Assembly (NCBI GenBank): GCA_040753015.1
Contig: JBFMHM010000001.1
Coordinates: 275,157 to 339,156, forward strand
Direction: 5' to 3'
From: Candidatus Omnitrophota bacterium
GTDB lineage: Bacteria; Omnitrophota; Gorgyraeia; Gygaellales; JBFMHM01
Length of the DNA: 64,000 nucleotides
This document shows, piece after piece, positions 2,519 to 63,469 of this stretch. Both the position numbers and the translations under genes were made by a program. A model generated the notes under the pieces. That model worked only from the letters and a program-made list of their open reading frames with translations. It searched no databases and was not told where the DNA came from. Position 1 is the first letter of the stretch. Each line of letters starts with the position of its first letter.

Positions 2519-5500
2519 TTTGATACCATAACTTCTTCTTTAGCCGTATCTTCTTTGTTTATTTCGTCTGTTGCTAAAGCCTTCGAAAGCTTTACTGAAA
2601 CAATCCTTGAAACACCCTGTTCCTGCATAGTAATTCCATACATAACATTGGCGTTTGCCATTGTTTTCTTGTTATGGGTAATAACGATAAATTGTGATTC
2701 TTTCGTAAATTCTTGAAGAACCCTTGAGAACCGATCAACATTTGCCTCATCTAAAGGAGCATCAATTTCATCTAACACGCAAAATGGCGAAGGCTTCACT
2801 TTAAATATCGCGAACATAAGCGCAGTTGCCGAAAGCGCCTTTTCTCCGCCCGAAAGAAGCAGAATATTTTGTAATTTCTTGCCTGGTGGACGGCAAATAA
2901 TTTCAATACCCGAATCTAAAGGATTATTCTCATCAATTAAGAATACGCTTGCATCTCCACCATTAAAAAGATACTTAAAATAATTTTTAAACTCTTCAGC
3001 TATTTTATCAAATGTCTCAACAAATATCTTTCTAGTTGTGCGATTAATTTTTGCTATAGCTTCTTGAATTGAATCTTTTGCTTTTACTAAATCATCCTGT
3101 TGAGCCAATAGGAACTCAAAACGTTTTTTCAATTCATCGAATTCTTCGATTGTAGAAATACTTGCACCTTCGTAACGTTGTAATTTTGATTTTAAATTAT
3201 TGATATTATCGCAAATCGAACTTTCATCGATATCCTCTGCCTGTTTCACATCTGAATTAATATTCTCCCTATAAAGCTGCTGCATCTTATCTAATAGGTT
3301 TAACTTTTGGAATTCGAATGTCTTTTGGCCCATCTCAACCTTATGTATATTATTTTTTAAATCTTCGATTTTTATAACTAACTTTTCTTTATCGGCTTGA
3401 GAGTTTCTAAAATCAATTTCTAGGCAATTAAATTCTTCTTTGATAATTATAAATCCTGAATCTATCTCCTGTTTTTGCGCTAAATTATTTTTAATCTTTA
3501 TTTCTAATTCTTGTATTAATCTATTAAAGTCTTCGAGTTTATTATTAGAATCGTTCTCCTCATTCGTATAACGGTTAAGACTTTCTATATCATTATTATA
3601 AGTAACTTCAAGCATGCTAAGCGCATCTTTTTGAGAATTTAATTTATCTTCAAGCCCGTCAAATTCAGTTTTGTCTTGGGTAATTGATATAAGCAATTCT
3701 TCTTTTGAATACAGCTTCTCTTGTAAAATAATCTGATAATCGCTAATTAATTTATTAGAATTTACTAAAGATTCATCCAGCTGTTTTAGTTTAATATTCG
3801 CATCGTTATTTCTTGTATTAAGGTTCTTCAATTCTTCGCTTAAATCTTCGATTTCAAAAGCAACAATCTCTCCTTCTTGTTTTAGTTTATTCAATTCAAG
3901 CTCTATGCCTTCAAGCCTTGTACTTAAATTCGCTACCTCTATACCTTGAGATTGAATATCTCTATCTAACTGCCTGATTTGTACTTGTTTTGCCTCAGTC
4001 AAACTTTTTTTATCTAAAATTAAGTTTTTTGTGTTATTTATAAAATTGGTTATTTCTTCAATTCTATTAGTAATCGATTCTGTTTCAAGGGGTATTGGCT
4101 TGGCATCACAATGAAGCAGATAATTAAAATTTTGGAAATCTTGTTTAACATTACCACTTAAATTCTCTGTATTATTTACACGCGCCAAAATCCCAGTAAT
4201 ACCGCTTGGTAAATCCTGTACTAAAATTACAGCGTTTAACTTCTGCTCTAGGCCTTCATATTCTGTTTTAAGTTTTTCGATAAATTCCCGCTGTGACTCC
4301 AATTTTATTTTTTGATTTTCTAAATCCTGGCAAGATTTATTTAAGGAGATGAGTTCATCGCTTAATTTTGTAAGCTCATCTTGCATGTTCTGCCTATCTG
4401 TGTTTAAAATATCAAACCGTGACTTAGACTGTGTTAATAATGAATTCAAATCATTGTAGCTCTGCTCAACAACTGCCTTTTCCTGATTAGTTTTTTCATT
4501 CTCAAGCTCGAGCCTTTTTTTACGTACATTTATATTCTGGATTCCGACATTAATTTCTATAATTGAATTTTTAAGCCTGCTTAATTCGGTAGTCAAATCT
4601 AAAATATTAGTTTTTTCCTGAATAATATTTTTTTCTGTCGATTTAATCACCTCTATCGTTTCTTTTAGTAAGCCTTCCTTTTTATTTATCTCTTCCTTAA
4701 GCAATAAAAATAAATTTTGAGTATGTTCAACTTGAGACTTATGCTCATCGACTTTTATCTGGCCATCTTTAATCCTAGTATCAAGCTCACTTTTTAGCTT
4801 CACCAGACTTTTTAACCTCACAGCTATTTCTTTAATTCTTTCTTTTGTAATATCCATATGTTGTAAATCGTTTTTGATACTATTTTCTAAAATCACTAAT
4901 TGATCTTTTGTCTGATTAATCTTGGCCTCTCCAAAAGATAACTTCTCTTTCTTATCTATTAAAGCTGCATCTAAAGCGGCTAATTCGTCCTGGCACAAAC
5001 TTAAAGTTTCGCTTTCTTTTGAATAATTTTTTGTTAAAAGTTCCAACTCTTTATTAATCTTTGCTATCTGAAAATTCGCAAGGCTTATTTCTGCCTGCTT
5101 TAATTCATCAAATATTTCCTTATAACGGCGGGCTTTGGTTGCCTGGCGCTCTAAAGAATCAATCTGGCGTTTTACCTCTAGAATTATATCGTTAATTCTA
5201 ACTAAATTTTGCTCTGTATCTTCTAATTTATTCAAAGCCTCTCTTTTCTGAGATTTATATTTAGTTATCCCGCTTGCTTCATCAAAAATCAAACGCCTAT
5301 CTTCAGGCCGCGAACTTAATATCAAATCCATCTTACCTTGTTCAACTAAAGAGTAGCTCTCGGCACCAATACCTGTGCCCATAAATAACTCTACGATATC
5401 TTTAAGGCGCACTAATGCTTTATTTATAAAATATTCGCTATCGCCTGAACGGTAGAGCCGCCGAGTAACTGTTACATCAGTTTCTTCAAGCGGCAAAATC

Positions 5501-15457: not shown

Positions 15458-18400
15458 CTATTTAAAACTAAAAGGCAAGGTCTTTTCTTCTAAAATTGAT
15501 TCCGGCATCACCAATTGATTCTTAGCGCCCATAAAACTTGGAACAGTATTTGCGACAAAAGGATTAAGCTGAGCATCAGCCTGACGGTACGCGCTATATA
15601 TATAATCTCCCCCGCCCACTATAGTATTATTTACAATGAATAACCCTGAATCTTGGGTTACATTTTCAAATTTAAACTTAACAAACGGGTTTGGCCCATC
15701 AGCAGTTAAATTCGCCGAAATTACACCGCTAATAGCATCTTTCCCACCAGCAGAAATAGTTACTGCTTCAACAGTTGTATCAGCATTAGTTACAATCGTT
15801 ATGGGGTTTAATGAATCACCTACTGAACCGCCAAGTGCTGTGAGGCTTATTGTAGGAGAAGTTATAGCAGTTACCCCCGGAGCCAAACCATTTAATATAG
15901 AACCTGGGGAAGTTAAACTAATCCTATCTCCTGACAAAGGAGAAGTAATTGTTTCATTGCCGCCGCCTAGTTTATTTATTGTTAAAGGATTACCAATTAA
16001 TGTGCCATGGCTTAAACCGCCATAATAATTAATTGTGAATGGACCTGTACTCGTAGCGTTTCTAAATGTTGCATTATTACTAGTTGTAGTAATTGATGTC
16101 GGAGGATTTGTTGCACCAACATTTGCTCCAGCATTAAAAGTCAGGCTGCCATTTGCCCCGCAGGTAATTGTAAGCCCAACAAGCCCGTCAACTAATGAAC
16201 TATAAGTTTGGTTTGTTCCGGCTGCAGCAGTAGTTATTGTTACGGCTGCGGTTGATAAAGTGAGTGTATCTGTCGCGGCATTACCAAATGTTAATGCACC
16301 CGCTGAAGTAAGAGTTAAACCATCCAAAGTTATATTTGCATTAAATGTAGAAGCAGTATCACCTGCAGCAATTGTAATATCGTCTTTAAACGTAACTGCT
16401 CCTGCACCATTTGCCTGAGTAATACCGCTCGCAGTTACAAGAGTACTTTCAAAGCTGGTTGTACTGGTTGAGTTAATGATTAAGGCTGCGCCTATTCCAT
16501 CACCAATTGGGGTTACGGAACCAACAGCGGCATTAAAGGTTGAGGTTCCAGTTACCCCCAAAGTAAGATCAAAAGCGCCGTCAATGAGTGAATTAACAAT
16601 TAAATCATCGCCAGCACCTGTTGTATTTATTGTAACAGCTGCTGTAGTAAGATTAACCTGATCTGTTCCGGCATTACCAAAGGTTATGTCACCGCCAGAT
16701 TGAAACGTTAACCCGTCTAAGTTAACAACAGCATTATTCAAAGTTGTTGCTGTATTTCCTGCGGCAATGGTTACATCGCCTTTAAAAGTTATATCCCCTG
16801 CTCCATTTGCAGAAGTAATGCCGCTTGCGGTTGCAAGAGTGCTTTCAAAGCTGGTTGTACCGGTTGAGTTAATGGTTAGGGCCGCACCTGTTCCGTCGCC
16901 AATTGGGGTTGCAGAACCGACTGCATTGTTAAAAGTAGTATTACCTGTTCCGGCTGCTAAAACAAGGTCTACACCTCCATCAACCAGGCCTGTAAAACCA
17001 ATCGTATCATTACTTGAGGTAAATGTTGTTGTTAAAAACCCATTAAGCGTTATAGAATTAGCGGCGCCTGCATTATAAGTTTGCTTATTAGCATTATAAG
17101 TGGTACCATCTAATCTAATCGAAGCAACATCTCCTCCAGCATCGGATCCAGTAATAGTTGTGTCGCCTGTAACGCCTGCACCAGCACCACCAATACTGTT
17201 TACGACAATATCATTACCACTAATAGTTAAAGATGTAACTGCTGTAGTTGCCCCTATCGCACTATTCACTGTAACATCTGCCAACCCAGCAGTTAAAGCA
17301 AATGCCTTGCCGCCGTCAATTGCGCCCGTAAGCGTAATATCTCCATCATTACCGGCTGTATCTGTATCTATTGTTACATCTGCCCCTAAAGTAATATTAG
17401 CAGTGCTGTTTAAGGTTACAGTATTACCCGCAGCATCAGAAGTAGTAATACCGCCATTTAAAGTTAGGGTGGCGCCGGCACTAACATTAACAGTATTTAT
17501 TTCATCAGCATTACCAATTGCTCCAACAGTTGAATTTCCCAGCATATTAGTAATTGTAAAATCTTCAGAACTTGTTCCCCTGACTGTGCCCACCGTAATA
17601 TTGCCGCCTAAAAGCCCCGGGGTAATTGTTAAATCTGAACCATTAGCCAGTGTAATTGTCCCTGTAAAAGTAATATCATCCCCGCTTGAAGTAAATGTTG
17701 TCGCCGCGCCTGCATCCATAGTGATCGCGTTACCAGCTGCGCCAGCATCATAGGTCTGCTGATTTGCAGTATAAGTTGCTCCAGTAAAAGCAATTGACGT
17801 AGTTGCGGTAACTGAAGTTGCGCCGGTTATGCCTTCTGCGATTGCTGTACCAATACTGCCTAAACTTATGCTTTTTGCAGTTATAGTTAAAGCGGAAAGC
17901 GCAGTTGTTGCGCCAATTGCACCAGTAATTGTCACATTACCACTTCCACCGCCGCTTGTAGAATCTAAAGTCAAAGAATTTGTTTCAGCCAAAACACTAT
18001 CTACAGTTCCAGTAATATTTATGGTTGCGCCTGTTGATGTGCCGCCATTAGTTGTATCGAGTGTTACATTAGTATCCAGCTGGACATTATCACTTATGGT
18101 TATTGCCTGTCCTGCAGTAACAATATCAGCATTTAAAACTGTGGTTGCCCCAGAACCATCTAAAGTTACTGATGCATCACCAGATCCGGTAATTTGGCCG
18201 TTTACTGTGATTGTTCCGCCAGAAGGCGAATTTATTGTAATTGGATCGTTGAAAGTAATTGCATTTATTGTTGCCCCACCACTGCCATTACTACGGCCTA
18301 TAGTAATAGAAGCTGCTCCATCTTGTATTTCAGCAATTTCTGCGGCAGTCAAACTAAAATCCCCTGCTCCGCCAGCAATACCAATAGACCTACCAACAGT

Positions 18401-25587: not shown

Positions 25588-25627
25588 TAACTATCTGCTC
25601 CTTGTATTATTTTTTATACTTAAACTG
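25588..25627 (+). repeat. 40-bp direct repeat, copy 1 (contains the pgk RBS)
   Basis: taactatctgctccttgtattattttttatacttaaactg, identical to 27187-27226. Confidence 0.9.
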
Positions 25628-25628
25628 T

Positions 25629-25964
25629 TTATATTACTTCCGGTTTTGTTAAACGTTGTTCGTGATTATCAATAACGGTAGAGAGTTTTTTATAGGTTTC
25701 TTCTTGTTTAATCTTTACGCCATTTACTTGATGACTGATATCCATCACAGCCATTTTAACGCTATTAAGCTCAGATTCAATTCTAAGAAAACTTTTATCG
25801 TGTTCTTCTAATTTTCTAATAATAGAACTATGTTGTTCGCCAATCAATTTAATACCTTTATTCATTTCTTCCAGCAACACATTTGTTTCACGTTGAGAGT
25901 CATATTCAACAGAAGGTTTTTCAAGCTTGGTATTTTTTTTATTTTTCATTACTTCCTCCGACAA
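25629..25964 (-). CDS. Hypothetical coiled-coil protein (111 aa)
   Basis: ORF with charged, heptad-like composition. No recognisable family. Confidence 0.4.
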   Translation of the reverse strand: MSEEVMKNKKNTKLEKPSVEYDSQRETNVLLEEMNKGIKLIGEQHSSIIRKLEEHDKSFLRIESELNSVKMAVMDISHQVNGVKIKQEETYKKLSTVIDNHEQRLTKPEVI

Positions 25965-27186: not shown

Positions 27187-27226
27187 TAACTATCTGCTCC
27201 TTGTATTATTTTTTATACTTAAACTG
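27187..27226 (+). repeat. 40-bp direct repeat, copy 2
   Basis: Identical 40-mer. Overlaps the last 8 nt of ORF 27219-27794. Confidence 0.9.
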
Positions 27227-27794
27227 CTGATTGCACCGCGAAAAGCGCAACCCCTTGATTATTATTTTCGTTCAACTCTGAAATTACATCACTAGAATCA
27301 ATCATTACAGCAATATCATATTGGCCAGGAGGCAAACGGTCGGTTTCACCAAGAAAGAAATAAAATTCGTAAGCAAAACTTTGGCCTGGCCTTATCGGAT
27401 TCGCTGGAATATGGTTAGCATTAAATTCTCTTGCCGGAAACCCTGGTAAGCTCGCTCGTATTATATACGCACTTGCCACAGGCGCATTACCTCTATTGAC
27501 AACCCTAACTCCAAGTGGAAAACCTGCCATTCTATCCGTAACATTGCCTCTAACCCACGCTGATTCTACAGCTAGATCTGCTCTTAGATTTTGTTCTACG
27601 GATTGAACTGAAACTTGCTGTACCCTTCTTGGGTCTATAACTAACTTCTTATTCTGTTGTTTAGACATGTCCCTTAGTTGCTCTTTGGATCCAGCAAATA
27701 AGTTAATTGCAAAACAAATACTTATAACCACCGAAAACAACACTATCCTTTTATATATCGACATCTTTTCCTCCTTTATTTTTAATCTGCACAA
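27219..27794 (-). CDS. Secreted CARDB-like domain protein
   Basis: 191 aa. Signal anchor and C-terminal D..V.E.NE.NN motif (DVISELNENNNQG) typical of CARDB domains. Confidence 0.45.
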   Translation of the reverse strand: MCRLKIKEEKMSIYKRIVLFSVVISICFAINLFAGSKEQLRDMSKQQNKKLVIDPRRVQQVSVQSVEQNLRADLAVESAWVRGNVTDRMAGFPLGVRVVNRGNAPVASAYIIRASLPGFPAREFNANHIPANPIRPGQSFAYEFYFFLGETDRLPPGQYDIAVMIDSSDVISELNENNNQGVALFAVQSAV

Positions 27795-46439: not shown

Positions 46440-47588
46440 CTACTTAAATGCTTTTTTTATTTTATCAGTAAACGATTCTTTATTATCAATATTTTCGCCG
46501 GAAATTCTTGCAAATTCCTCTAACAATTCTCTTTGTTTTGTATTCAAAGATTGAGGAATTTCAATATTAACTACGACCAGCTCATCGCCGCGACTTCTGC
46601 CATGGACATCCGGCATACCTTTATCTCTTAGACGAAAAATTTTCCCTGTTTGTGTGCCTTGCGGTATTTTCATTCTTACATCACCTTCAAGCGTTGGCAC
46701 TTCAATCTCGCCACCCAAAGCCGCCTTTACCATACTTACAAAAACTTCAACTATAATATCATTATCCCGGCGAGAAAATTTTCTATCCTCTAGGACATTA
46801 ATTACCACATAAAGATCCCCTGCGCCTGCTTTACCCTCTTCTCCTTCACCTCTCAAGCGTAAATTCGAACCAGTATCAACTCCTGCAGGTATCTTCACTT
46901 CAATTTTATGAGCTGTTTTAACCCTTGCCTGTCCATGACAAATAGGACAAGGATGTGCAATAATTTCACCTTCACCGCGGCACCTGGAACAAGTCTGCCT
47001 AAGATTAAAAAAACCACTAGATACTGTTATATGGCCCTTACCCCGGCATTCTGGACAAGTTGTTTTTTTCGTTCCTGGTTTTGCACCCGTGCCCAAACAT
47101 TCCTTGCATAAATCATAACGGCTTATTTTTACTGTCTTACTAACGCCTTTGAATGCTTCTTCTAAAGTTATATCTACCTGAACCTGTAAATCGCGACCAC
47201 GTTCTCTATTATGACGGGTTCTCCTTTGGCCCGCACCAAAAATATCAAAACCTAAATCACTAAAAATCTCATCAAATAATCCACCACCAAAACCTTCTCC
47301 AAAAATACTCGAGAAATCAGCGCCTTTAAAGATATCTTGATAGCTATATTTTTGGTCTACGCCCGCATGCCCATATTGATCATAAAGAGAACGTTTCTGA
47401 GAATCAGATAAAACCGCATAGGCCTCGGATAATTCTTTAAATTGTTCCTCCGCTTCTTTCTTTTTTTCATGCGGCACTCTATCTGGATGATATTTTAAAG
47501 CAAGCGTACGATAAGCTTTCTTTACCTCATCTAAAGAAGCGCTTTTACTGATACCTAATATTTCATAATAATCTCTTTTTGTAGACAT
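46440..47588 (-). CDS. dnaJ: Chaperone DnaJ
   Basis: J domain (HPD), G/F region and four CxxCxGxG zinc repeats. Confidence 0.95.
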   Translation of the reverse strand: MSTKRDYYEILGISKSASLDEVKKAYRTLALKYHPDRVPHEKKKEAEEQFKELSEAYAVLSDSQKRSLYDQYGHAGVDQKYSYQDIFKGADFSSIFGEGFGGGLFDEIFSDLGFDIFGAGQRRTRHNRERGRDLQVQVDITLEEAFKGVSKTVKISRYDLCKECLGTGAKPGTKKTTCPECRGKGHITVSSGFFNLRQTCSRCRGEGEIIAHPCPICHGQARVKTAHKIEVKIPAGVDTGSNLRLRGEGEEGKAGAGDLYVVINVLEDRKFSRRDNDIIVEVFVSMVKAALGGEIEVPTLEGDVRMKIPQGTQTGKIFRLRDKGMPDVHGRSRGDELVVVNIEIPQSLNTKQRELLEEFARISGENIDNKESFTDKIKKAFK

Positions 47589-49480
47589 TATTTTTTATCA
47601 TCTTCCTCGCGATATTCAGCGTCTATAATGTCTTCTTTGTTTGAAGCGGATCCACCTTCGGCAGATTTACCGCCTTTATCTTCCTGTGGTCCTTTATCTT
47701 CTGCCTGAGAGGCGGGCTTTTGTTTCGCCGCCTCCTGCTTATAAATCTCTTCGGCAAGTTTATGCGATGCTTTACTTAAATCTTCCATTCCTTTTCGAAT
47801 ACGATCAACATTTTTATCCTTTATAGCTGCCTTTAAATCATTGATCTTTGCCTCAATATCGCCTTTCTCTTGCTGTGAAACTTTATCGCCATAATCTTTA
47901 AGCGCCTTTTCGGTTGAATAGACTAAAGTATCTGCCTGATTAACAACTTCAACTTCTTCTTTTCGTCTTTTATCCGTCTCAGCAAATTTATCCGCGTCAC
48001 GAACCATCCTATCAATCTCTTCCTGAGAAAGTTTTTTAGGAGCAGTAATCTTGATCGACTGTTCTTTTTTAGTGCCTAGGTCTTTAGCGGAAACATGAAC
48101 TATACCGTTTGCATCAATATCAAAAGCAACCTCAATCTGTGGAATACCTCGAGGTGCCGGCGGAATTCCAACTAAGTCAAATCTTCCTAGTTCCACATTA
48201 TCATCTGCCATTTGACGTTCACCTTGCAAAACCCTAATTGTTACTGCGGTTTGATTATCAGCCGCAGTTGAAAATACTTGCGATTTTCTTGTTGGAATAG
48301 TAGTATTTCTTTCAATAAGACGAGTACATACCCCACCTAAAGTCTCAATACCAAGCGATAAAGGAGTTACGTCTAAAAGTAATACATCCTTTGTATCACC
48401 TTTAATAATCGATGCTTGAATTGCAGCACCCATAGCAACGCATTCCATCGGGTCTACCCCACGCTCAATTTTTTTACCAACATAATCTTCGACAAATTTT
48501 TGCATAATCGGCATACGCGTAGGGCCACCTACCATAATTATACGATCGATATCACGGCTTTCAAGCTTTGCATCTGTTAATGCAATTTCCATAGGATGCT
48601 TACACTTATCAATAATCGGCGATACTAAATCCTCTAGTTTTGCACGTGTTATAGACATTGTTAAATGCTTAGGCCCAGAAGAATCAGCCGTGATAAATGG
48701 TAAATTAATATCTGTTGTAAGAGTGCTAGACAACTCGATCTTTGCTTTCTCTGCGGCCTCTCTAACTCTCTGGGTAGCCATTTTATCTTTTCTTAAATCA
48801 ATTCCCGTCTCTCTCTTAAATTGCTCAGCTATATAATCAATTAAAATATTATCCATATCTGTACCGCCTAGATGCGTATCACCAGATGTAGATTTTACTT
48901 CAAATACACCTTGCGCCATTTCCATAATAGTGACATCTAAAGTCCCGCCGCCAAAATCGAAAACCATTATTTTTTGCTCTTTCTCGCTTTTTTGCAGTCC
49001 ATAAGCAAGACAAGCTGCCGTTGGTTCATTTATAACACGTAAGACTTTTAACCCTGCAATCTCGCCAGCATCTTTAGTTGCTGTCCGCTGATTATCATTA
49101 AAATAAGCAGGGCATGTAATAACTACTTCTTCTACCTTATCACCAAGATAACTTTCAGCATCCTGTTTTATTTTCTGTAAAATAAATGCGGAAATCTGTT
49201 GAGGCGTATATTCCTTACCATAGGCCTTAAAATGAAAATCTTCGCCCATCTTACGCTTTGCCGCAAAAATAGTACCTTCTGGATTAACTGCTGCCTGACG
49301 ACGAGCCGGTTCTCCAACTAAACGCTCTCCTTCCTTAGTAAACGCTACATAAGAAGGAAATGCTTTACCAGAAGCAACACCCGCGCCTTCAGCTGAAGGA
49401 ATAATAACCGGCCTCGAACCTTCCATAACGCTAGCCGCTGAATTTGAAGTACCTAAATCAATGCCTATAACTTTTGCCAT
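47588..49480 (-). CDS. dnaK: Chaperone DnaK (start probably the ATG at 49480; the ORF-table GTG at 49486 adds two residues)
   Basis: [14 protein letters not shown]..., Hsp70 signatures. RBS GGAGGTG 7 nt upstream of the ATG at 49480. Confidence 0.95.
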
Positions 49481-49486
49481 TGCCAC

Positions 49487-49545
49487 ACCTCCATTGCAAC
49501 CGCTAAAGCGCTAAATACGCTAAAGCGCTAAATATTATTAACAAC
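49487..49545 (+). promoter_or_regulatory. Conserved ~60-nt leader upstream of dnaK: RBS GGAGGTG, the inverted core TTGCAACCGC, and four TTTAGCG(C) units (two AGCGCT palindromes with centres 17 nt apart)
   Basis: Transcribed strand: TTGTTAATAATATTTAGCGCTTTAGCGTATTTAGCGCTTTAGCGGTTGCAATGGAGGTG. A near-identical block lies upstream of gene 55935-57488 (57489-57548). Confidence 0.7.
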
Positions 49546-49905
49546 TCTTTTTATTTCTAATCTTGGTTTTGCAAAATTTAATATCAAACCCAATTTCACA
49601 TCAACTGCTTTTAGATACGATATTGTTTGTGCCAAATGAATATCATTAATTTCTGAAACACATTTTAATTCCAAAATAATCAAATCTCCTATTAAAAAAT
49701 CTATCCTTTGAGAACCAATATATAATTCTTTATATTTAACTTGGATTTCTTTTTCTTTATTATGCCTAATGTTTAATTTATCAAATTCATAAGCTAAAGC
49801 TGTCTGATAAATCTTCTCTACGAAACCAGGACCTAAATGTTTATGAACTTCTATTGCGATGCCAATAACCTTATTTGATAATTCATCTAATTGTTGTTTA
49901 TCCAT
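49528..49905 (-). CDS. GxxExxY family protein (TIGR04256-type)
   Basis: 125 aa, MDKQQLDELSNKVIGIAIEVHKHLGPGFVEKIYQ... carries the GxxExxY motif. Inserted between grpE and dnaK. Confidence 0.75.
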   Translation of the reverse strand: MDKQQLDELSNKVIGIAIEVHKHLGPGFVEKIYQTALAYEFDKLNIRHNKEKEIQVKYKELYIGSQRIDFLIGDLIILELKCVSEINDIHLAQTISYLKAVDVKLGLILNFAKPRLEIKRVVNNI

Positions 49906-49906
49906 T

Positions 49907-49986
49907 TTGCGCTTTTGCTATTTTTGCTTCTTTGCGGTTGCAACTTTTTTGCGCTTTTGCTATTTTTGCTTCTTTGCGGTTGCAAC
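49907..49986 (+). repeat. Perfect tandem duplication of a 40-nt unit containing GCGGTTGCAAC
   Basis: tttgcgcttttgctatttttgcttctttgcggttgcaact x2. The first unit is the 5' leader of the GxxExxY gene; the second forms the last codons of grpE (VATAKKQK). Confidence 0.85.
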
Positions 49987-50523
49987 TTTGACCTTTGCCG
50001 TCCTAATTACACGGTCTTCTAATTTGTAGCCTTTTTGCAATTCTTCAATCACAACATTCTCTGGGAATTTATCTGTTTCTTCAACTAATAAAGCCTCATG
50101 CATACTCGGATCAAACTTTTTTCCCTTTGCCTCAATTGGCAAAAGCCCTTTCTTTTTTAATAATTCGTAAAGATGCGCTAAAATCATTTCTATCCCTTTT
50201 AAAAAAGTAGTAAAATCTTCTCTTTCTTCTTCCGCGGCTTCAACTGTACGCTCGAGATCATCTAAAATACCAAGTAATTCAACAATCAATCCTTCATTAG
50301 CAAACTTAATAAACAAATCTTGTTCTTTCTGCATCCTTTTTCTTACATTATCAAATTCTGCCTGTAACCTCAAATATTTATCCCAGCAATCTTTGGCTTT
50401 TTTAGCTTCTTCTCTTAATAAAATAAGCTCATCTTCATTAATCGAAATTAACTTTTTTTCATCTTGAGGATGCAAAATTTCCTCTTCTGGCTTATCTTCT
50501 TTTTTATTATTCATCAATTTCAC
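49960..50523 (-). CDS. grpE: Nucleotide exchange factor GrpE
   Basis: 187 aa, GrpE profile. C-terminal residues are encoded by the repeat (possible 3' alteration). Confidence 0.85.
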   Translation of the reverse strand: MKLMNNKKEDKPEEEILHPQDEKKLISINEDELILLREEAKKAKDCWDKYLRLQAEFDNVRKRMQKEQDLFIKFANEGLIVELLGILDDLERTVEAAEEEREDFTTFLKGIEMILAHLYELLKKKGLLPIEAKGKKFDPSMHEALLVEETDKFPENVVIEELQKGYKLEDRVIRTAKVKVATAKKQK

Positions 50524-51256
50524 CGAAAAAATCAGATAAAAGACACGACGTATATTCGATCAAAGGTATAACTTGAGAATAACGAAGACGCGTTGGGCCT
50601 AATACAGCAATCCTGCCAGCAGGCCTAGCTTTTCTTTTATAAGTAGATATAATCATTGTACAATCCTTCATTTCATCTATAATGTTTTCTTGGCCAATAT
50701 AAATTTTCAAAGGTTCTTCGATATTCTGATTAATTGTCTTTAATAAATTCTCTTTTTCTTCTAATGCGCCAAACAATGCACGCAATTTTTTGATATCGTT
50801 AAATTCCGGATGCTCAAAGATAAAAGAAGTACCATTAAAATAAATTTTATGCTCCCAATCCGTAAATGACACGAGGCTTGGATAATGCGATAATCTTGCC
50901 AGCATGTCCGAAGCTTTTTCAAGAAACTCTGAAATATCTAAATTATCAAAATCTAACTCCTTGCTTATCATTTCCTTTTGACACCCCTGTATTTCATTAT
51001 GGCCTAAAATATTATCTACATAAAAACGATATCCCTTATCGGTCGGGATCCTCCCGGCAGAAGTATGTGGATGTGTTATAAATTCCATCTCCTCTAAATC
51101 TGCCATGGCATTACGAATAGTAGCAGAACTTAAACCAAAATTAAACTCTTTAGCAATAAATTCTGAACTTATCGGAAACGAGTTAGCGATAAAAGACTCT
51201 ATTATTGCGCCAAGTATATTTTTCCGTCTTGCCTCTAAATCAGCTATTCTAATCAT
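50507..51256 (-). CDS. hrcA: Heat-inducible transcription repressor HrcA (short form)
   Basis: N-terminal winged-helix with HrcA-like context (hrcA-grpE-dnaK-dnaJ). A CIRCE lies upstream. Confidence 0.7.
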   Translation of the reverse strand: MIRIADLEARRKNILGAIIESFIANSFPISSEFIAKEFNFGLSSATIRNAMADLEEMEFITHPHTSAGRIPTDKGYRFYVDNILGHNEIQGCQKEMISKELDFDNLDISEFLEKASDMLARLSHYPSLVSFTDWEHKIYFNGTSFIFEHPEFNDIKKLRALFGALEEKENLLKTINQNIEEPLKIYIGQENIIDEMKDCTMIISTYKRKARPAGRIAVLGPTRLRYSQVIPLIEYTSCLLSDFFGEIDE

Positions 51257-51271
51257 ATTAATTCCCCTATT

Positions 51272-51298
51272 TTAGCAATCTCAAGCTGCGAGTGCTAA
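51272..51298. promoter_or_regulatory. CIRCE operator (HrcA binding site)
   Basis: TTAGCAATC-tcaagctgc-GAGTGCTAA matches TTAGCACTC-N9-GAGTGCTAA with one mismatch. Lies 16 nt upstream of the hrcA start. Confidence 0.8.
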
Positions 51299-57488: not shown

Positions 57489-57548
57489 TAAGCACCTCCA
57501 TTGCAGCCGCTAAAGCGCAAAATACGCTAAAGCGCTAAATTTTATTGA
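57489..57548 (+). promoter_or_regulatory. Second copy of the dnaK-type leader (RBS GGAGGTG, TTGCAGCCGC, 4x TTTAGCG-like units)
   Basis: Transcribed strand: TTGTCAATAAAATTTAGCGCTTTAGCGTATTTTGCGCTTTAGCGGCTGCAATGGAGGTG. Confidence 0.7.
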
Positions 57549-58075
57549 CAACCTTTTTTAATATCACGGTTTGGATGAAAACCAATTATTTTCTTTTCTT
57601 TAACCGTCGGCGGTTCAAACAAATTTCTAAGCGCATCAAAAACCATTTTAAAATGCGAGTCATATTTCTTTTCCATCGTTTCAATCTTACGCCTTAACGC
57701 TGTATAAGTCAACGCCATACGTTTAAAATTAACAAATGCGCGCATAATCTGTATATTTGCCATTACCGCACGCCTACTGCGTAAAACGCTTGAAAGCATA
57801 GCCACGCCTTGCTCGGTAAATGCATAAGGCAAATAACCACCTAAAACCTGTAGCGATGGTATCACATTTTGTGATACCATAATTTTAACTTCTGCATTTG
57901 TAATTCGAAACATAAAATCTTCGGGAAATCGCTCTCGATTCCTTTTTACTTGCTGCCTCAGCGCTATGGGCTTAACATCATAAAGAACCGCTAAATCTTT
58001 ATCTAACATTACCCTTTTGCCTCTAATCTGAAAAATCTTATTCTCAATCTGCTCAACTGATAACGATCTACTCAT
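57542..58075 (-). CDS. ORF6N-domain protein (KilA-C/anti-repressor-associated domain family), copy A
   Basis: 177 aa. [47 protein letters not shown] is the ORF6N signature. Confidence 0.7.
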   Translation of the reverse strand: MSRSLSVEQIENKIFQIRGKRVMLDKDLAVLYDVKPIALRQQVKRNRERFPEDFMFRITNAEVKIMVSQNVIPSLQVLGGYLPYAFTEQGVAMLSSVLRSRRAVMANIQIMRAFVNFKRMALTYTALRRKIETMEKKYDSHFKMVFDALRNLFEPPTVKEKKIIGFHPNRDIKKGCQ

Positions 58076-58078
58076 TTC

Positions 58079-58180
58079 TTAACTCCATTTTCCGAAATAA
58101 TTAACAGCACCAAAAAATAAAAACATAAAACCTAATCTAAAAATTTTATTTAATAAATCATCTAATTCTTTTTTATCCAT
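58079..58180 (-). pseudogene. Remnant of a GxxExxY gene 5' end fused to cassette sequence
   Basis: MDKKELDDLLNK... vs MDKQQLDELSNK of the intact GxxExxY gene, then divergent (IFRLGFMFLFFGAVNYFGKWS*). An identical copy lies at 60224-60325. Confidence 0.5.
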
Positions 58181-58208
58181 TTTTGCGTTTTTGCGGTTGC
58201 AACACTTC

Positions 58209-58250
58209 TTTGCGCCTTTGCGGTTGCAATCTTTTGCATCAAACACCTCC
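58209..58250 (+). repeat. 42-nt cassette-boundary repeat, copy 1 (-10-like TATATT nearby, RBS GGAGGTG, uORF MQKIATAKAQ...)
   Basis: tttgcgcctttgcggttgcaatcttttgcatcaaacacctcc, identical at 60354-60395 and 61136-61177. Confidence 0.85.
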
Positions 58251-58261
58251 ATAAAATAAAA

Positions 58262-58681
58262 TTAAAGTTTACAATATAAAACTATTTCTTCTAGGTATTT
58301 TTCAATATCGCTCAACTGATTTGTAAAAATATTAAAAACTTTATTCATATCTATTTTGGCATATTCATGAACGATAACATTGCGAAAACCTGCCATAGAA
58401 CACATAATTTCTAACATCTCTCGACTGATAACTTTTTTTTCATACAAAACATCAAACAAGCCTGAAAAACTCCCCGGTATCCCCCAATCATTATCGGAAA
58501 TAATATGGCTTGCAATATCGATACAACCTTGAATCGCATCCAATAAATTTATACGCACAATATCTTGAACATCTCTATTGTTTAAAAAATTACCTAAACT
58601 AATCCCTTGTTTTTCTTTGAGGCGAGATAAACTATCATTGATATTGGCAATTTTTGCTATAACAATATCACGCTTAACCAT
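58262..58681 (-). CDS. hepT: HepT-like HEPN toxin (DUF86)
   Basis: 139 aa with Rx4HxY motif (RNVIVHEY). Overlaps the upstream mntA by 8 nt. Confidence 0.75.
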   Translation of the reverse strand: MVKRDIVIAKIANINDSLSRLKEKQGISLGNFLNNRDVQDIVRINLLDAIQGCIDIASHIISDNDWGIPGSFSGLFDVLYEKKVISREMLEIMCSMAGFRNVIVHEYAKIDMNKVFNIFTNQLSDIEKYLEEIVLYCKL

Positions 58682-59105
58682 GTTTGCGCTCCTTAATCCT
58701 TCTTATTAACGCATCCTCCATATTTCTTCGTATAAAAAGAAAATCAAAGTATTCCAATACTGCGTACACTTTAAAATTGCGATTTGCCCCTTTATAAGAT
58801 TCGTAAACTTCTACGCCATTTTTTAATACCTGATATTTTAAAAAAGAATTTGCATTATTTAAAATTACAATATCAATATTCTTATCAAAAATCTTACTCA
58901 AATCATTCATTATAGACAGTTTTCTATCGCTATATTCCTGTATCGAGATATTCTCATTAAGAAAAACAGCAATATCAATATCGCTAAATTTATTTGTTTT
59001 ATTAGATGCTGCGGAACCAAACAAATAGGCAAACTTTATTTTTCGTTGAGCAGAAAAATATCCATTTAATTTTTCTTTAATATCGCTAATGGTTAAATTA
59101 TACAT
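58674..59105 (-). CDS. mntA: MntA-like nucleotidyltransferase antitoxin
   Basis: GSAASNKTNKFSDIDIAV is the GSx9-13DxD nucleotidyltransferase motif. Confidence 0.75.
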   Translation of the reverse strand: MYNLTISDIKEKLNGYFSAQRKIKFAYLFGSAASNKTNKFSDIDIAVFLNENISIQEYSDRKLSIMNDLSKIFDKNIDIVILNNANSFLKYQVLKNGVEVYESYKGANRNFKVYAVLEYFDFLFIRRNMEDALIRRIKERKHG

Positions 59106-59108
59106 ATT

Positions 59109-59492
59109 TCAGATTATACTATAAAATTCTTTTTCTTTCTCAGTCTTTGTTTTCGAAAGAATCAATAGATGATTCGTCCAACTTATTTGTGTCAGCAGTG
59201 CTGACACAAATTTTTTCTGATGATAAGCGTCATGAAACTGCCACATCCGGTATAGCCGTCGCCGATTAAAACCTTTAAATTCCGGATGTTTGCTTTGAAT
59301 ATAACAAGCCAGTTGATCTACTGCCGCATCACCCCACTCAGCAGTCTTAAGCTTATTACTTATATATCCACCAACATTCCAATATAATTTTACGAGTTCG
59401 GCATTAACGCTTTTAATAGCATTAAAACGAGCCTCATGAATCATCCTAACGACTTCGGAAAACTGATTATCAAGCCGTTTAACTATTTTCAT
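59109..59492 (-). pseudogene. DUF1016 (YhcG-like PDDEXK nuclease) N-terminal fragment, 127 aa of ~350
   Basis: LYWNVGGYISNKL...GDAAVDQLACYIQSKHPEFKGFNRRRLYRMWQFHDAY...LLTQISWTNHLLILSK...KEFY matches the DUF1016 N-terminal region. The nuclease domain is absent. Confidence 0.55.
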
Positions 59493-59529
59493 TTATCTTC
59501 CTGCCTACAATTTTATCTCTATCATTAAA

Positions 59530-59589
59530 GTAGGGGCGAAACCATGTTTTCGCCCCAATAATTTGGGCGATTACACGGAATCGCCCCTA
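59530..59589. repeat. Nested GC-rich palindromic element in AT-rich intergenic DNA
   Basis: GTAGGGGCGA...TCGCCCCTAC outer 10-bp inverted repeat enclosing hairpins GGGGCGAAAccatgTTTTCGCCCC and GGGCGAttacacggaaTCGCCC. Confidence 0.6.
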
Positions 59590-59692
59590 CGAACATTAAA
59601 AACATAAAAATTATTTTTAAAACATTTTTCTTTTGCATCAAACACCTAAAAATTTGCTCTGTAAATTTTTTATCCCGAAGCATACGAGAAAA

Positions 59693-60220
59693 TTATCCTT
59701 TTTTAATATCACGGTTTGGATGAAAACCAATTATTTTCTTTTCTTTAACCGTCGACGGTTCAAACAAATTTCTAAGCGCATCAAAAACCATTTTAAAATG
59801 CGAGTCATATTTCTTTTCCATCGTTTCAATCTTACGCCTTAACGCTGTATAAGTCAACGCCATACGTTTGAAATTAACAAATGCGCGCATAATTTGTATA
59901 TTTGCCATTACCGCACGCCTACTGCGTAAAACGCTTGAAAGCATAGCCACGCCTTGCTCGGTAAATGCATAAGGCAAATAACCACCTAAAACCTGTAGCG
60001 ATGGTATCACATTTTGTGATACCATAATTTTAACTTCTGCATTTGTAATTCGAAACATAAAATCTTCGGGAAATCGCTCTCGATTCCTTTTTACTTGCTG
60101 CCTCAGCGCTATGGGCTTAACATCATAAAGAACCGCTAAATCTTTATCTAACATTACCCTTTTGCCTCTAATCTGAAAAATCTTATTCTCAATCTGCTCA
60201 ACTGATAACGATCTACTCAT
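59693..60220 (-). CDS. ORF6N-domain protein, copy B (near-identical paralogue)
   Basis: 175 aa, differs from copy A by 1-2 residues (PPT->PST). Part of the ~700-bp duplicated block. Confidence 0.7.
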   Translation of the reverse strand: MSRSLSVEQIENKIFQIRGKRVMLDKDLAVLYDVKPIALRQQVKRNRERFPEDFMFRITNAEVKIMVSQNVIPSLQVLGGYLPYAFTEQGVAMLSSVLRSRRAVMANIQIMRAFVNFKRMALTYTALRRKIETMEKKYDSHFKMVFDALRNLFEPSTVKEKKIIGFHPNRDIKKG

Positions 60221-60353
60221 TTCTTAACTCCATTTTCCGAAATAATTAACAGCACCAAAAAATAAAAACATAAAACCTAATCTAAAAATTTTATTTAATA
60301 AATCATCTAATTCTTTTTTATCCATTTTTGCGTTTTTGCGGTTGCAACACTTC

Positions 60354-60395
60354 TTTGCGCCTTTGCGGTTGCAATCTTTTGCATCAAACACCTCC
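60354..60395 (+). repeat. 42-nt cassette-boundary repeat, copy 2
   Basis: Identical 42-mer. Confidence 0.85.
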
Positions 60396-60426
60396 AGTAT
60401 TTAAAAATTTACAATATAAAATTATT

Positions 60427-60756
60427 TTACAAATAAATGACCTTGCCTGTTCTCTTTATTTCAGAAAGAAAATCAAGTTTATTTTTCACATTGAATTCTT
60501 TTGATGTGTAACCTTTCGCTTCAATTGGCTTCATTATCCTTGCAGCTGCAATGCCAAGAACCTCAAGCCTTTCCCGTAAATTCATTTTTTTAAAATCATT
60601 CGATATAACAGCAACATCAATATCACTGTCTTTACGTTCTTTTCCTCTTACAAATGAACCATAAAGAATCACCTTTTCAATATTAATCCCTAATGTTTGC
60701 AACATCTCTTTATATTCACTTATATATTTTTTAATCTTATATCCTGCTTTAAACAT
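60427..60756 (-). CDS. MNT nucleotidyltransferase (HI0073-like)
   Basis: YGSFVRGKERKDSDIDVAVI motif. Confidence 0.75.
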   Translation of the reverse strand: MFKAGYKIKKYISEYKEMLQTLGINIEKVILYGSFVRGKERKDSDIDVAVISNDFKKMNLRERLEVLGIAAARIMKPIEAKGYTSKEFNVKNKLDFLSEIKRTGKVIYL

Positions 60757-61115
60757 TTTATTATCTCCATGGTTTTATCTAGATATTTTTTAGTAATATT
60801 TTTTGGATAATTAGATACAAGCCTCGATAAATCTTCTGGATATCTTGTTACCACTCCAGCATTATTAATTATGCCAACAAAATCTAATAAATCCGCAGAT
60901 AACTTAATTTTTCCAAGATCCAATAAATAAATTAGGTCATGCGTTTTCGGAGGAAGTTTATTTATCGCTTCAGAAACAATTGCCTTAAGAACTTTTTCAA
61001 TTGCCAAATGACACATAAAAATAACATAAACATACCGCCCCGTCTTAAACATTTGTTTAGCGGTTGTTAGATCATATTCCACCATATTTAGCCAATTTTT
61101 AGTCTCTTTATTCAT
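60720..61115 (-). CDS. HEPN-domain protein (HI0074-like), upstream partner of the MNT
   Basis: 131 aa HEPN fold with a C-terminal RYPEDL-type motif. Overlaps the MNT gene by 37 nt. Confidence 0.7.
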   Translation of the reverse strand: MNKETKNWLNMVEYDLTTAKQMFKTGRYVYVIFMCHLAIEKVLKAIVSEAINKLPPKTHDLIYLLDLGKIKLSADLLDFVGIINNAGVVTRYPEDLSRLVSNYPKNITKKYLDKTMEIIKCLKQDIRLKNI

Positions 61116-61135
61116 TTCGCGCTTTTATTTTTTAT

Positions 61136-61177
61136 TTTTGCGCCTTTGCGGTTGCAATCTTTTGCATCAAACACCTC
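61136..61177 (+). repeat. 42-nt cassette-boundary repeat, copy 3
   Basis: Identical 42-mer, here followed on the transcribed strand by uORF MQKIATAKAQK* and the HEPN gene. Confidence 0.85.
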
Positions 61178-61266
61178 CAATTTAGAATTGTTATATTATG
61201 TGGACGAGACAACCTTGCTCCTACTTAAATTAATAAATACATAAATTTTTTATATTATACCATAGT

Positions 61267-62924: not shown

Positions 62925-62989
62925 AATTTTAGTGTAAAATTCAAAGCGAAAAATGTAAAACTGAAGTGTAAAACTTTAAATTTTAAGCT

Positions 62990-63469
62990 TTAACTTTGCA
63001 CTTTTCGCTTTACGTTTTGCGCTTTAATTATCTGTAACATAAACCATGCTATTGATATAGTTATTGCGCTATCGGCAATATTAAAAACCGGCCAAATATG
63101 AAAATCTATGAAATCAATAACATAGCCAAAGCGAACCCTATCGACTAAATTACCTATTGTCCCGCCTAAAAATAATCCAAGCAAGATAGGATTTATATTT
63201 GTATCTTTTTTAATTAATATTAAATATATTATATAAAATATCACAAAAATAGCTGTGACTATAAAGATAAAGGTAAGATTATGCAATATACCAAACGCCG
63301 CGCCAGTATTTTTTACTAAACTAAAACTAAGGACATTAGGTATAATTGAAATTGATTTTTCTGAATAAAGAAATTTCCCGACGAGTAATTTCGTTAATTG
63401 ATCAACGAACAGAACACTAAAGCTAACTAAAGTTATGATTTTTCCTTTGCCTCTTGGCATTTCAAACAA
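62990..63469 (-). CDS. lspA: Lipoprotein signal peptidase II
   Basis: NTGAAFG and FNIADSAI motifs. Confidence 0.85.
   Translation of the reverse strand: MFEMPRGKGKIITLVSFSVLFVDQLTKLLVGKFLYSEKSISIIPNVLSFSLVKNTGAAFGILHNLTFIFIVTAIFVIFYIIYLILIKKDTNINPILLGLFLGGTIGNLVDRVRFGYVIDFIDFHIWPVFNIADSAITISIAWFMLQIIKAQNVKRKVQS

Follow-up and report, generated by a model that had tools for sequence, protein, structure and literature searches.

How a small gene of the GxxExxY family came to stand between grpE and dnaK, in the middle of a highly conserved operon, is the question raised by this stretch of 64,000 nucleotides (nt) from a Candidatus Omnitrophota bacterium, hereafter called the window. From comparisons with related genomes, we conclude that the gene, together with the inverted arrays of short motifs on its two sides (the left and right arms), was inserted here and took the place of the native GrpE tail and of the spacer between grpE and dnaK. 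On balance, and with the reservations set out below, we favour the explanation that it is a selfish cassette, consisting of a PD-(D/E)XK nuclease gene between inverted arrays of 8-9-nt motifs, with gene-less derivatives.

Replacement of native sequence between grpE and dnaK

Every gene of the region lies on the minus strand, in the order hrcA (50507-51256), grpE (49960-50514/50523; Pfam GrpE, E 9e-47), a 125-aa open reading frame (ORF), dnaK (47588-49480) and dnaJ (46440-47588). The 125-aa ORF (49528-49905) is the GxxExxY, or PDDEXK_3, gene. GrpE is identical to P0121, a protein from an NCBI Omnitrophota metagenome-assembled genome (MAG), and the ATG at 49480 was taken as the true start of dnaK on the basis of the start of homologous dnaK genes.

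The filled and empty alleles compared here (loci are designated L) belong to different species, not strains. The closest relative, L083 (GrpE 76% identical), is empty and has 10 nt between grpE and dnaK (AAAGTTGCAAAAAATAAAAATTAG-GAGGGTCGAG-ATG). The cassette is also absent at six more distant Omnitrophota loci, L001-L006 (GrpE 54-62% identical), where grpE is directly followed by dnaK. These empty relatives confirm the claim of a preliminary description of this DNA, made from its sequence alone, that a GxxExxY cassette is inserted in the hrcA-grpE-dnaK-dnaJ operon. One further relative, L081 (GrpE 70% identical), carries a GxxExxY gene (62% identical) at the same position, between arms of the window's type (GTTGCAACCGCAAAGGCCGCAAAAG... 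and ...TTTTTGCGTACTTAGCGGTTGCAA-G-GGAGG), and its near relative L155 is empty, with the native tail GTCGCAAAAAATAAATAA and a 16-nt spacer. The native GrpE tails of L155 and L083 (GTTGCAAAAAATAAAAATTAG) are mutually homologous. In each of the empty/filled pairs L083/window, L155/L081, L158/L134 and L157/L135, the filled member lacks the native tail and spacer (14-31 nt long in the closest empty alleles). Past the insertion point, GGAGGTATTAAC-ATGGC is identical in filled L081 and empty L155, and the ribosome-binding site (RBS) and spacer of dnaK therefore look native. The RBS, GGAGGTG (49486-49492, minus strand), lies 1 nt past the tip of the right arm and is followed by 5 nt (tggca) and the dnaK ATG; its assignment to the cassette in the preliminary description is not upheld.

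The left arm consists of two copies of the 42-nt unit AAGTTGCAACCGCAAAGAAGCAAAAATAGCAAAAGCGCAAAA on the minus strand, a distal one (49948-49989) and a proximal one (49906-49947). The proximal copy extends to the GxxExxY ATG, and it is this one that pairs with the right arm. Tandem Repeats Finder (TRF) reported the array at 49905-49989 with period 42, 2.0 copies, 100% identity and a score of 170, so that the perfect tandem described before was correctly seen, with a unit of 42 rather than 40 nt. On the coding strand, the left junction reads grpE...GTC AAA G, then TTGCAACCGCAAAGAAGCAAAAATAG CAAAAGCGCAAAA, and the 42-nt unit is repeated exactly before the GxxExxY ATG. CAAA is present at both boundaries of the duplication, which fits recent slipped-strand replication. 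The distal copy encodes the last eight GrpE codons, VATAKKQK (49963-49986), plus the stop codon, and thus gives GrpE an in-frame, lysine-rich tail and termination; GrpE of relatives ends in VAKNKN, VAKAKEK or VSKK.... The rewriting of the grpE 3' end that had been proposed is correct in this respect, and the insertion additionally removed the native tail and spacer.

The right arm (49494-49530, minus strand), inverted with respect to the left one, comprises a TAG stop, four TTTAGCG(C) units and a GCGGTTGCAA tip, and precedes the dnaK RBS as had been described. It reads TAG-CGCTTTAG-CGTATTTAG-CGCTTTAG-CGGTTGCAA, then a single T, then GGAGGTG, with repeats of period 8 (3.9 copies) and period 17 (2 copies at 100%). 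The left arm is built of CGCAAAG motifs and the right arm of CTTTAGCG motifs, and TTGCAA caps each array. The core decamer GCGGTTGCAA occurs in nine exact copies in the 64 kb, where 0.14 are expected (an approximately 60-fold excess; none of 100 shuffles reaches nine). Eight of these lie within arms, and the ninth, at 16827 inside a 1898-aa ORF and with no motif array around it, is probably due to chance. Arrays of at least three motif units are restricted to arm loci in the window, except for a 5-nt overlap cluster at 3474-3478.

The TTGCAA at both ends of the cassette is palindromic. At the corresponding position of L134 and L135, the empty alleles L158 and L157 read native GTAAGT and GTGAGT, so TTGCAA appears to come with the element, as judged from these alignments. 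The single GTTGCAA of L083 had suggested a target-site duplication, which is undermined by GTCGCAA in L155 and by the sequences of L157 and L158. We also withdraw the notion of a native hexamer, derived from S-TAK versus A-TAK GrpE tails, since Ser is natively encoded there by AGT rather than TCA.

Complementarity between the arms extends over approximately 34 nt, with 25 matches. Joined without cargo, they fold as a single hairpin (-36.4 kcal/mol, z -5.2). Folding of the full transcript (531 nt) likewise brings the right arm together with the proximal copy of the left arm, whether the minimum-energy or the centroid structure is taken (z -4.1). When 55 genes of the window were compared for an inverted repeat between their flanks, GxxExxY ranked first (z 6.3, the median being 0.2); in the sample of 11 GxxExxY genes treated below, its z is 6.2. 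The mismatches that separate the two arms comprise 31 transversions, seven sense-strand G-U and six antisense wobble-type changes; they fall mostly in the linkers, and the motif cores are conserved. Because the linker mismatches are mostly transversions, without an excess of sense-strand G-U, the pattern points to motif arrays at the DNA level and not to a selected RNA stem.

The preliminary description allowed that the sequence before dnaK might be a native leader, in which case relatives lacking the gene should retain it. Two gene-less relatives, L134 and L135, do keep the right arm, always together with a left arm, and other relatives have neither. Because gene-less palindromes exist while other relatives have neither arm, the right arm is foreign to dnaK but does not require the gene. 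A native dnaK leader or RNA thermometer was likewise rejected: the arms contain no anti-Shine-Dalgarno sequence, precede unrelated genes and are absent from the nearest relatives, and the operon has a normal regulator site, the controlling inverted repeat of chaperone expression (CIRCE).

This CIRCE operator lies upstream of hrcA at 51272-51298 (TTAGCAATC-N9-GAGTGCTAA, 1 mismatch) and overlaps promoter-like hexamers; the hrcA-grpE-GxxExxY-dnaK operon, and the cassette with it, should accordingly respond to heat shock through HrcA. On its minus strand, the cassette has nothing that resembles a promoter or terminator, and no Shine-Dalgarno sequence precedes the GxxExxY ATG, which makes read-through from the CIRCE/HrcA-controlled operon likely. 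The 42-nt duplication keeps the frame; owing to it, 54 nt instead of 12 now separate the stop codon of grpE from the ATG of GxxExxY. In both L081 and L087, the preceding ORF continues through the left arm and shares its last 8 nt with the beginning of GxxExxY. GxxExxY is thus probably expressed via operon read-through plus termination-reinitiation after grpE. The heat-shock operon here tolerates a cassette of approximately 500 nt between grpE and dnaK as well as a rewritten GrpE C-terminus.

Gene and arms in other genomes

The GxxExxY protein matches Pfam PF13366 PDDEXK_3 (E 7.5e-38, 129.9 bits against a cut-off of 22) and TIGR04256 (E 4e-39, 133.6 bits against a cut-off of 35). The GFVEKIY motif (G27-F-V-E30-K-I-Y33), D69, E79 and K81 are intact and invariant in an alignment of 30 sequences, and the predicted structure (predicted local distance difference test score 95) has a Cas4-like or restriction-endonuclease-like PD-(D/E)XK fold. 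As with GrpE, an identical entry is present among NCBI MAG proteins, the window itself deriving from a Candidatus Omnitrophota MAG, and the next best is 68% identical; a separate exact-protein look-up of the window's gene gave no result. A sequence search of the PDB returned no homologue and PHROGs no match; PADLOC gave just a weak resemblance to Cas4b (E 0.001), and viral contigs yielded one chance match to the arm pattern and no relative of this GxxExxY copy. The family is very large: a search of 1.84 billion representatives of 50%-identity clusters yielded 14,422 matches (E <= 1e-3). Its function is given as "unknown" in a survey of the PD-(D/E)XK superfamily (PMC3424549). The other literature found that names GxxExxY does so in passing. 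Many homologues of 250-295 aa (e.g. P0241, P0250 and P0252) consist of two tandem GxxExxY domains. Many others, of 140-180 aa, have N-terminal extensions, which may be gene calls that start inside a translated left arm.

We sampled 11 GxxExxY genes and tested for inverted repeats between their 110-nt flanks. These were significant in nine genes, from Omnitrophota, Bacteroidota and Spirochaetota (z 3.7-14.6). In the armed cassettes, inverted arrays of 8-9-nt motifs enclose the ORF, which takes up exactly the whole loop between them; the cassette of L087 has a multi-unit right arm. In all cases examined, from Omnitrophota and cultured organisms, GxxExxY stands between co-directional genes, as a rule housekeeping ones: T2SSF and a response regulator in L137-L146, radA and a FAD protein gene in Bacteroides finegoldii, ade and mannose-1-phosphate guanylyltransferase in Bernardetia, fabD and fabG in Sphingomonas, and likewise in Treponema. 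Arms of the CGCAAA(A)G type accompany five Omnitrophota proteins that are 59-74% identical, CACAGAG(G) arms two Bacteroidota proteins, and CACAGAT arms L147b. The last belongs to a locus, L147, with two cassettes approximately 500 bp apart, in which L147b is 48% identical to L147a. The comparison shows that the arm motif type follows the protein clade, gene and arms evolving as one unit across phyla at the level of the sequences compared; this corroborates the treatment of gene and arms as a unit in the preliminary description. Whole arms have been tandemly duplicated in the window, L087 and L137. As a separate observation, at L147 (10001-11283; NCBI GCA_043808095.1, Omnitrophota) the CGCAAAA-type and CACAGAT-type cassettes bracket one polyketide-cyclase-like gene and are adjoined by an AbiEii gene and a gene with a helix-turn-helix domain.

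The grpE-dnaK junction itself has been occupied more than once. A GrpE tail of the form V[AS]TAK... instead of V[AS]KK... was found in six of 120 homologues, scattered across the protein tree. Filled or arm-only alleles are those of the window, L081, L134 and L135, with gene and arms in the first two. L134 has an ORF-less arm pair (GTTGCAA|CCGCAAAGACCGCAGAT...TGTGCGG|TTGCAA|GGGAGG), L135 has arms only, with the right tip TTACAA, and aligns with both ends of the L081 cassette; L132 has only a left arm at this site. Over the last 300 nt of grpE, identity is 83% between L134 and empty L158 versus 76% between L134 and L135, 78% between L135 and L157 and 79% between L081 and L155; over the last 120 nt, it is 79% between the window and L083 versus 69% between the window and L081. 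Each occupied allele compared is thus nearer to an empty allele than to another occupied one, and the empty alleles retain normal GrpE tails with the native codons GTGAGTAAA and GTAAGTAAA. Repeated precise loss is unlikely for this reason, and at least four separate acquisitions at the junction would be the simpler reading of these alignments. The flanks, examined over the final 120 nt of grpE and the initial 150 nt of dnaK, track the host lineage and gave no signal of co-conversion. In L136 (3520-3731; JGI Ga0434945_002358), the GrpE tail starts with GTTGCAGCTGCTAAAAAA, includes ACCGCAGAT and is followed by a 128-nt spacer, so that a cassette may have decayed here too, leaving a remnant.

Palindromes of the TTGCAA type that lack the gene are not confined to grpE-dnaK; unrelated junctions carry them in L112 (fold z -8.6), L090 and L111. 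A scan of metagenome contigs for the arm pattern gave 47 matches, of which only L087, L090, L111/L127 and L112 are real; some 40 fell by chance within unrelated genes, one of them in a block similar to glutamate racemase, and were rejected. Between lspA and lgt, the window itself has a decayed palindrome of this build, again without a gene (62940-63035, minus strand; fold -25.4 kcal/mol, z -3.5). A-rich xGxAAAG units make up its left half, from which the C-terminal tail of LspA (KAQNVKRKVQS) is translated, and TTTTxCxC units come after them.

A proposed selfish cassette and its alternatives

We found no description of a cassette of gene plus arms in the literature that could be searched. Under the explanation favoured here, the arms would be arrays of predicted binding sites for the encoded nuclease, and the cassette might spread through nuclease-made breaks repaired from a filled copy, in a homing-like manner, or through excision and reinsertion. 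Gene-less copies would be internally deleted, non-autonomous derivatives, and the ORF6N and HEPN-MNT genes that lie beside arms elsewhere in the window would be secondary captures by rearrangement. If the cassette is mobile, this explains the presence of GxxExxY genes inside highly conserved operons (dnaK, fab, radA), offers an origin for a family of palindromic intergenic repeats in Omnitrophota, and matches a tiny nuclease to a short iterated DNA motif in a way that can be tested, with cultured organisms in the Bacteroides and Sphingomonas examples. A bolder version, which we put forward tentatively and consider rather doubtful, is that of a phylum-spanning, autonomous minimal mobile element, in which the 125-aa nuclease binds its own arm motifs and drives copying into junctions of co-directional genes. 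It would be 'polite', in that it provides an in-frame tail and stop upstream and leaves the downstream start signals intact, and the gene-less palindromes would be its non-autonomous offspring.

Several points weigh against a selfish cassette. Among the loci compared, there is no strain-level pair of presence and absence, and the boundaries are known within a few nt. No target-site duplication can be demonstrated here, TTGCAA being palindromic, or in the other cassettes examined. The only ORF of the cassette encodes a 125-aa PD-(D/E)XK nuclease, not a transposase or recombinase, and PD-(D/E)XK hydrolases are, to our knowledge, not known to perform strand transfer; that the nuclease binds the arms is something we purely infer. 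The replacement of native tail and spacer is not explained by simple transposition. The flank inverted repeats were not significant in two of the 11 genes sampled, the Fusobacteria and Sphingomonas copies. The window copy was not recently active, because it has no close paralogue and the next best protein is 68% identical. Finally, flanks that follow the host lineage without co-conversion would fit classical long-homology homing poorly, and long-homology allelic homing was rejected on this ground.

The cassette shares with free-standing homing endonuclease genes a small nuclease gene wedged between conserved genes, patchy occupation of the same site and degenerate ORF-less forms there, as expected of a homing cycle that runs from invasion through decay to loss, and I-Ssp6803I is a homing endonuclease of the PD-(D/E)XK type. 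It differs in that homing genes need no inverted arms, no co-conversion is seen in the flanks, and one arm type is found at non-homologous sites. Like integron attC cassettes and the pdif modules of Acinetobacter plasmids, it involves promoterless, co-oriented small genes with imperfect palindromic bounds; its GCGG-TTGCAA-CCGC junction resembles a recombinase core with a 6-bp spacer, and toxin-antitoxin-type genes are present in the neighbouring array. An integron attC site was rejected because the tips TTGCAAC/GTTGCAA fail the consensus RYYYAAC...GTTRRRY (GTTGCAA departs from GTTRRRY at two positions) and the ORF lies inside the palindrome, not beside it; nor did a link to an integrase or to Xer recombination emerge.

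The first alternative takes the palindromic arms themselves as the primary element, an intergenic repeat that some unlinked enzyme moves in trans, GxxExxY being a passenger that has settled in its loop or been captured by it. Two known types of element come to mind. The miniature inverted-repeat transposable elements (MITEs), such as the Correia/NEMIS elements of Neisseria, have terminal inverted repeats, lie in numerous copies in intergenic regions near gene starts and are co-transcribed with their neighbours. In systems of repetitive extragenic palindromic (REP) doublets forming hairpins and REP-associated tyrosine transposases (REPIN-RAYT), inverted palindromic repeats stand, as here, on both sides of a gene for a small enzyme and are also scattered without it through intergenic regions; RAYTs are relatives of HUH/Y1 transposases and usually single-copy. 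The cassette resembles MITEs and their autonomous parents in these respects and in short gene-less copies beside longer coding ones. Unlike them, it has no DDE or other known transposase ORF, no demonstrable target-site duplication, and iterated 8-9-nt motifs, and it replaces host sequence. Unlike RAYTs, GxxExxY is of the PD-(D/E)XK type (only PDDEXK_3 matches were obtained), can be multi-copy, as in L147, and has its own arms with each copy. A passenger gene would accord with the gene-less arm pairs at grpE-dnaK (L134 and L135) and elsewhere (L112, L090 and 62940-63035 of the window), with the arms that adjoin ORF6N and HEPN-MNT genes, and with the frequency of tandem whole-arm duplication. 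However, arm motif and GxxExxY clade vary together, both between phyla and inside the L147 genome; the loop is in every case filled exactly by the ORF; L135 can be aligned to an ORF-bearing cassette at both ends; and no trans-acting candidate is known, the window not having been searched for transposase or recombinase genes. We regard this alternative as unlikely.

Less probable still, in our estimation, is an RNA-level element of the kind known as intervening sequences (IVS) in 23S rRNA genes, in which RNase III would cut the arm stem, loop out the ORF and uncouple the grpE and dnaK mRNAs, the arms being kept for pairing. The IVS of Coxiella, Leptospira and Salmonella measure approximately 0.1-0.75 kb, are found with or without a small ORF and have a sporadic distribution that suggests lateral spread, by a mechanism of mobility that is not known (PMC4990558). 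The cassette agrees with them in length, in the long stem predicted from its terminal inverted repeats, in occurring with or without an ORF and in its sporadic distribution (PMC4990558), and its size and build match the 428-444-nt IVS of Coxiella 23S rRNA, with its 28-bp terminal stem, small ORF and excision by RNase III (PMC4990558). Pairing of the full-length arms is predicted in the 531-nt transcript and in gene-less copies, and all copies examined are co-oriented with the flanking genes. Against this, IVS lie in rRNA helices, are removed by RNase III and encode the four-helix-bundle S23p protein, whereas the cassette lies in an mRNA between protein genes, has a translated left arm and a nuclease ORF, and its motif-array arms show no wobble compensation. 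The mismatch counts given above provide no sense-strand excess of wobble pairs, for which reason a selected RNA stem was rejected, and ribosomes translating the left arm as the GrpE tail would open the stem. A known RNA family was rejected as well, as the window has no Rfam match at the gathering threshold; the cassette is thus not in a 23S rRNA gene, the window being without rRNA or other Rfam match. In sum, the cassette, which in build most resembles an ORF-bearing IVS, a MITE with its autonomous parent, a REPIN-RAYT system and a homing gene, departs from each in one defining feature: it is not in rRNA, has no transposase, encodes no HUH protein and gives no signal of flank co-conversion.

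That nothing here is mobile, and that a low-complexity GrpE tail and a native dnaK leader surround an old resident of the operon, is scarcely credible: native GrpE tails are also lysine- and alanine-rich (VAKNKN, VAKKKQEEKK) and L081 has the same gene in the same place, but unrelated genes, both in other parts of the window and in other genomes, are bordered by the same arms, GCGGTTGCAA is strongly over-represented, and the reading is already contradicted by the empty alleles of the nearest relatives, which have homologous native tails and neither arms nor gene.

Arms beside ORF6N and HEPN-MNT genes

Arms also occur elsewhere in the window. A second right arm, with the tip GCGGCTGCAA plus TGGAGGTG, lies on the minus strand at 57493-57545, behind ORF6N-A and before a gene for a 517-aa secreted protein; the sequence at 57493-57560 is 91% identical to the dnaK-side arm over 68 nt. 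Left arms are present at 58164-58250, 60309-60396 and 61119-61179. The observation that the arm pair of the dnaK operon also bounds the ORF6N-A block thus holds. The block 57493-58250 reads, in order, two tandem left arms, 12 GxxExxY codons, a signal-peptide fragment, ORF6N and the right arm. Its composite part (58079-58250, minus strand) begins with a mini-ORF start, GGAGGTGTTTGATGCAAAAGA, ahead of the two tandem arms; the 12 codons lie at 58145-58180 and the signal-peptide fragment at 58079-58144.

The preliminary description had recognised GxxExxY 5' remnants at two sites. The stretch MDKKELDDLLNK is indeed 84% identical to the GxxExxY 5' end over 45 nt, but the remnant amounts to only 12 codons, and the rest of its small ORF is a signal-peptide fragment of the neighbouring secreted-protein family, which had been missed. 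The second remnant (60224-60396, minus strand) is not an independent event: it is a 99% segmental duplicate of 58079-58250 at a spacing of 2145 nt, within a larger duplicate (59697-60396, 99% identical) of the arm-bounded block that has lost the right arm. A solo left arm follows the mini-ORF MQKIATAKAQK* directly before the HEPN-MNT pair (61116-61179, minus strand), again without a right arm, and the right arm is missing at three of five left-arm loci. Because the signal-peptide fragment lies behind the 12 GxxExxY codons, at least two rearrangements occurred at the ORF6N block. The suggestion that ORF6N genes replaced GxxExxY in situ is therefore borne out only in part; the ORF6N and HEPN-MNT blocks are rearrangement products around old cassette arms, not clean exchanges of cargo.

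ORF6N matches the PADLOC defence candidate PDC-S05 (E 1e-52). The surrounding region, 57490-61180, resembles a defence island of co-oriented small genes (two ORF6N genes, HepT-MNT, DUF1016_N and MNT-HEPN), among which lie three identical modules of 43 nt, TGGAGGTGTTTGATGCAAAAGATTGCAACCGCAAAGGCGCAAA, and 5' pieces of genes from a secreted-protein family (MQKKNVLKIIFMF..., MQSKIFRLVFVF...).

Two further repeats were recorded elsewhere in the window. A 45-nt direct repeat, unrelated to the arms, is found at gene boundaries 1.6 kb apart (25588-25632 and 27187-27231, 96% identity). The 1898-aa ORF that holds the non-arm copy of GCGGTTGCAA has an internal 214-nt repeat, at 16340-16553 and 16736-16949, whose copies are 76% identical.

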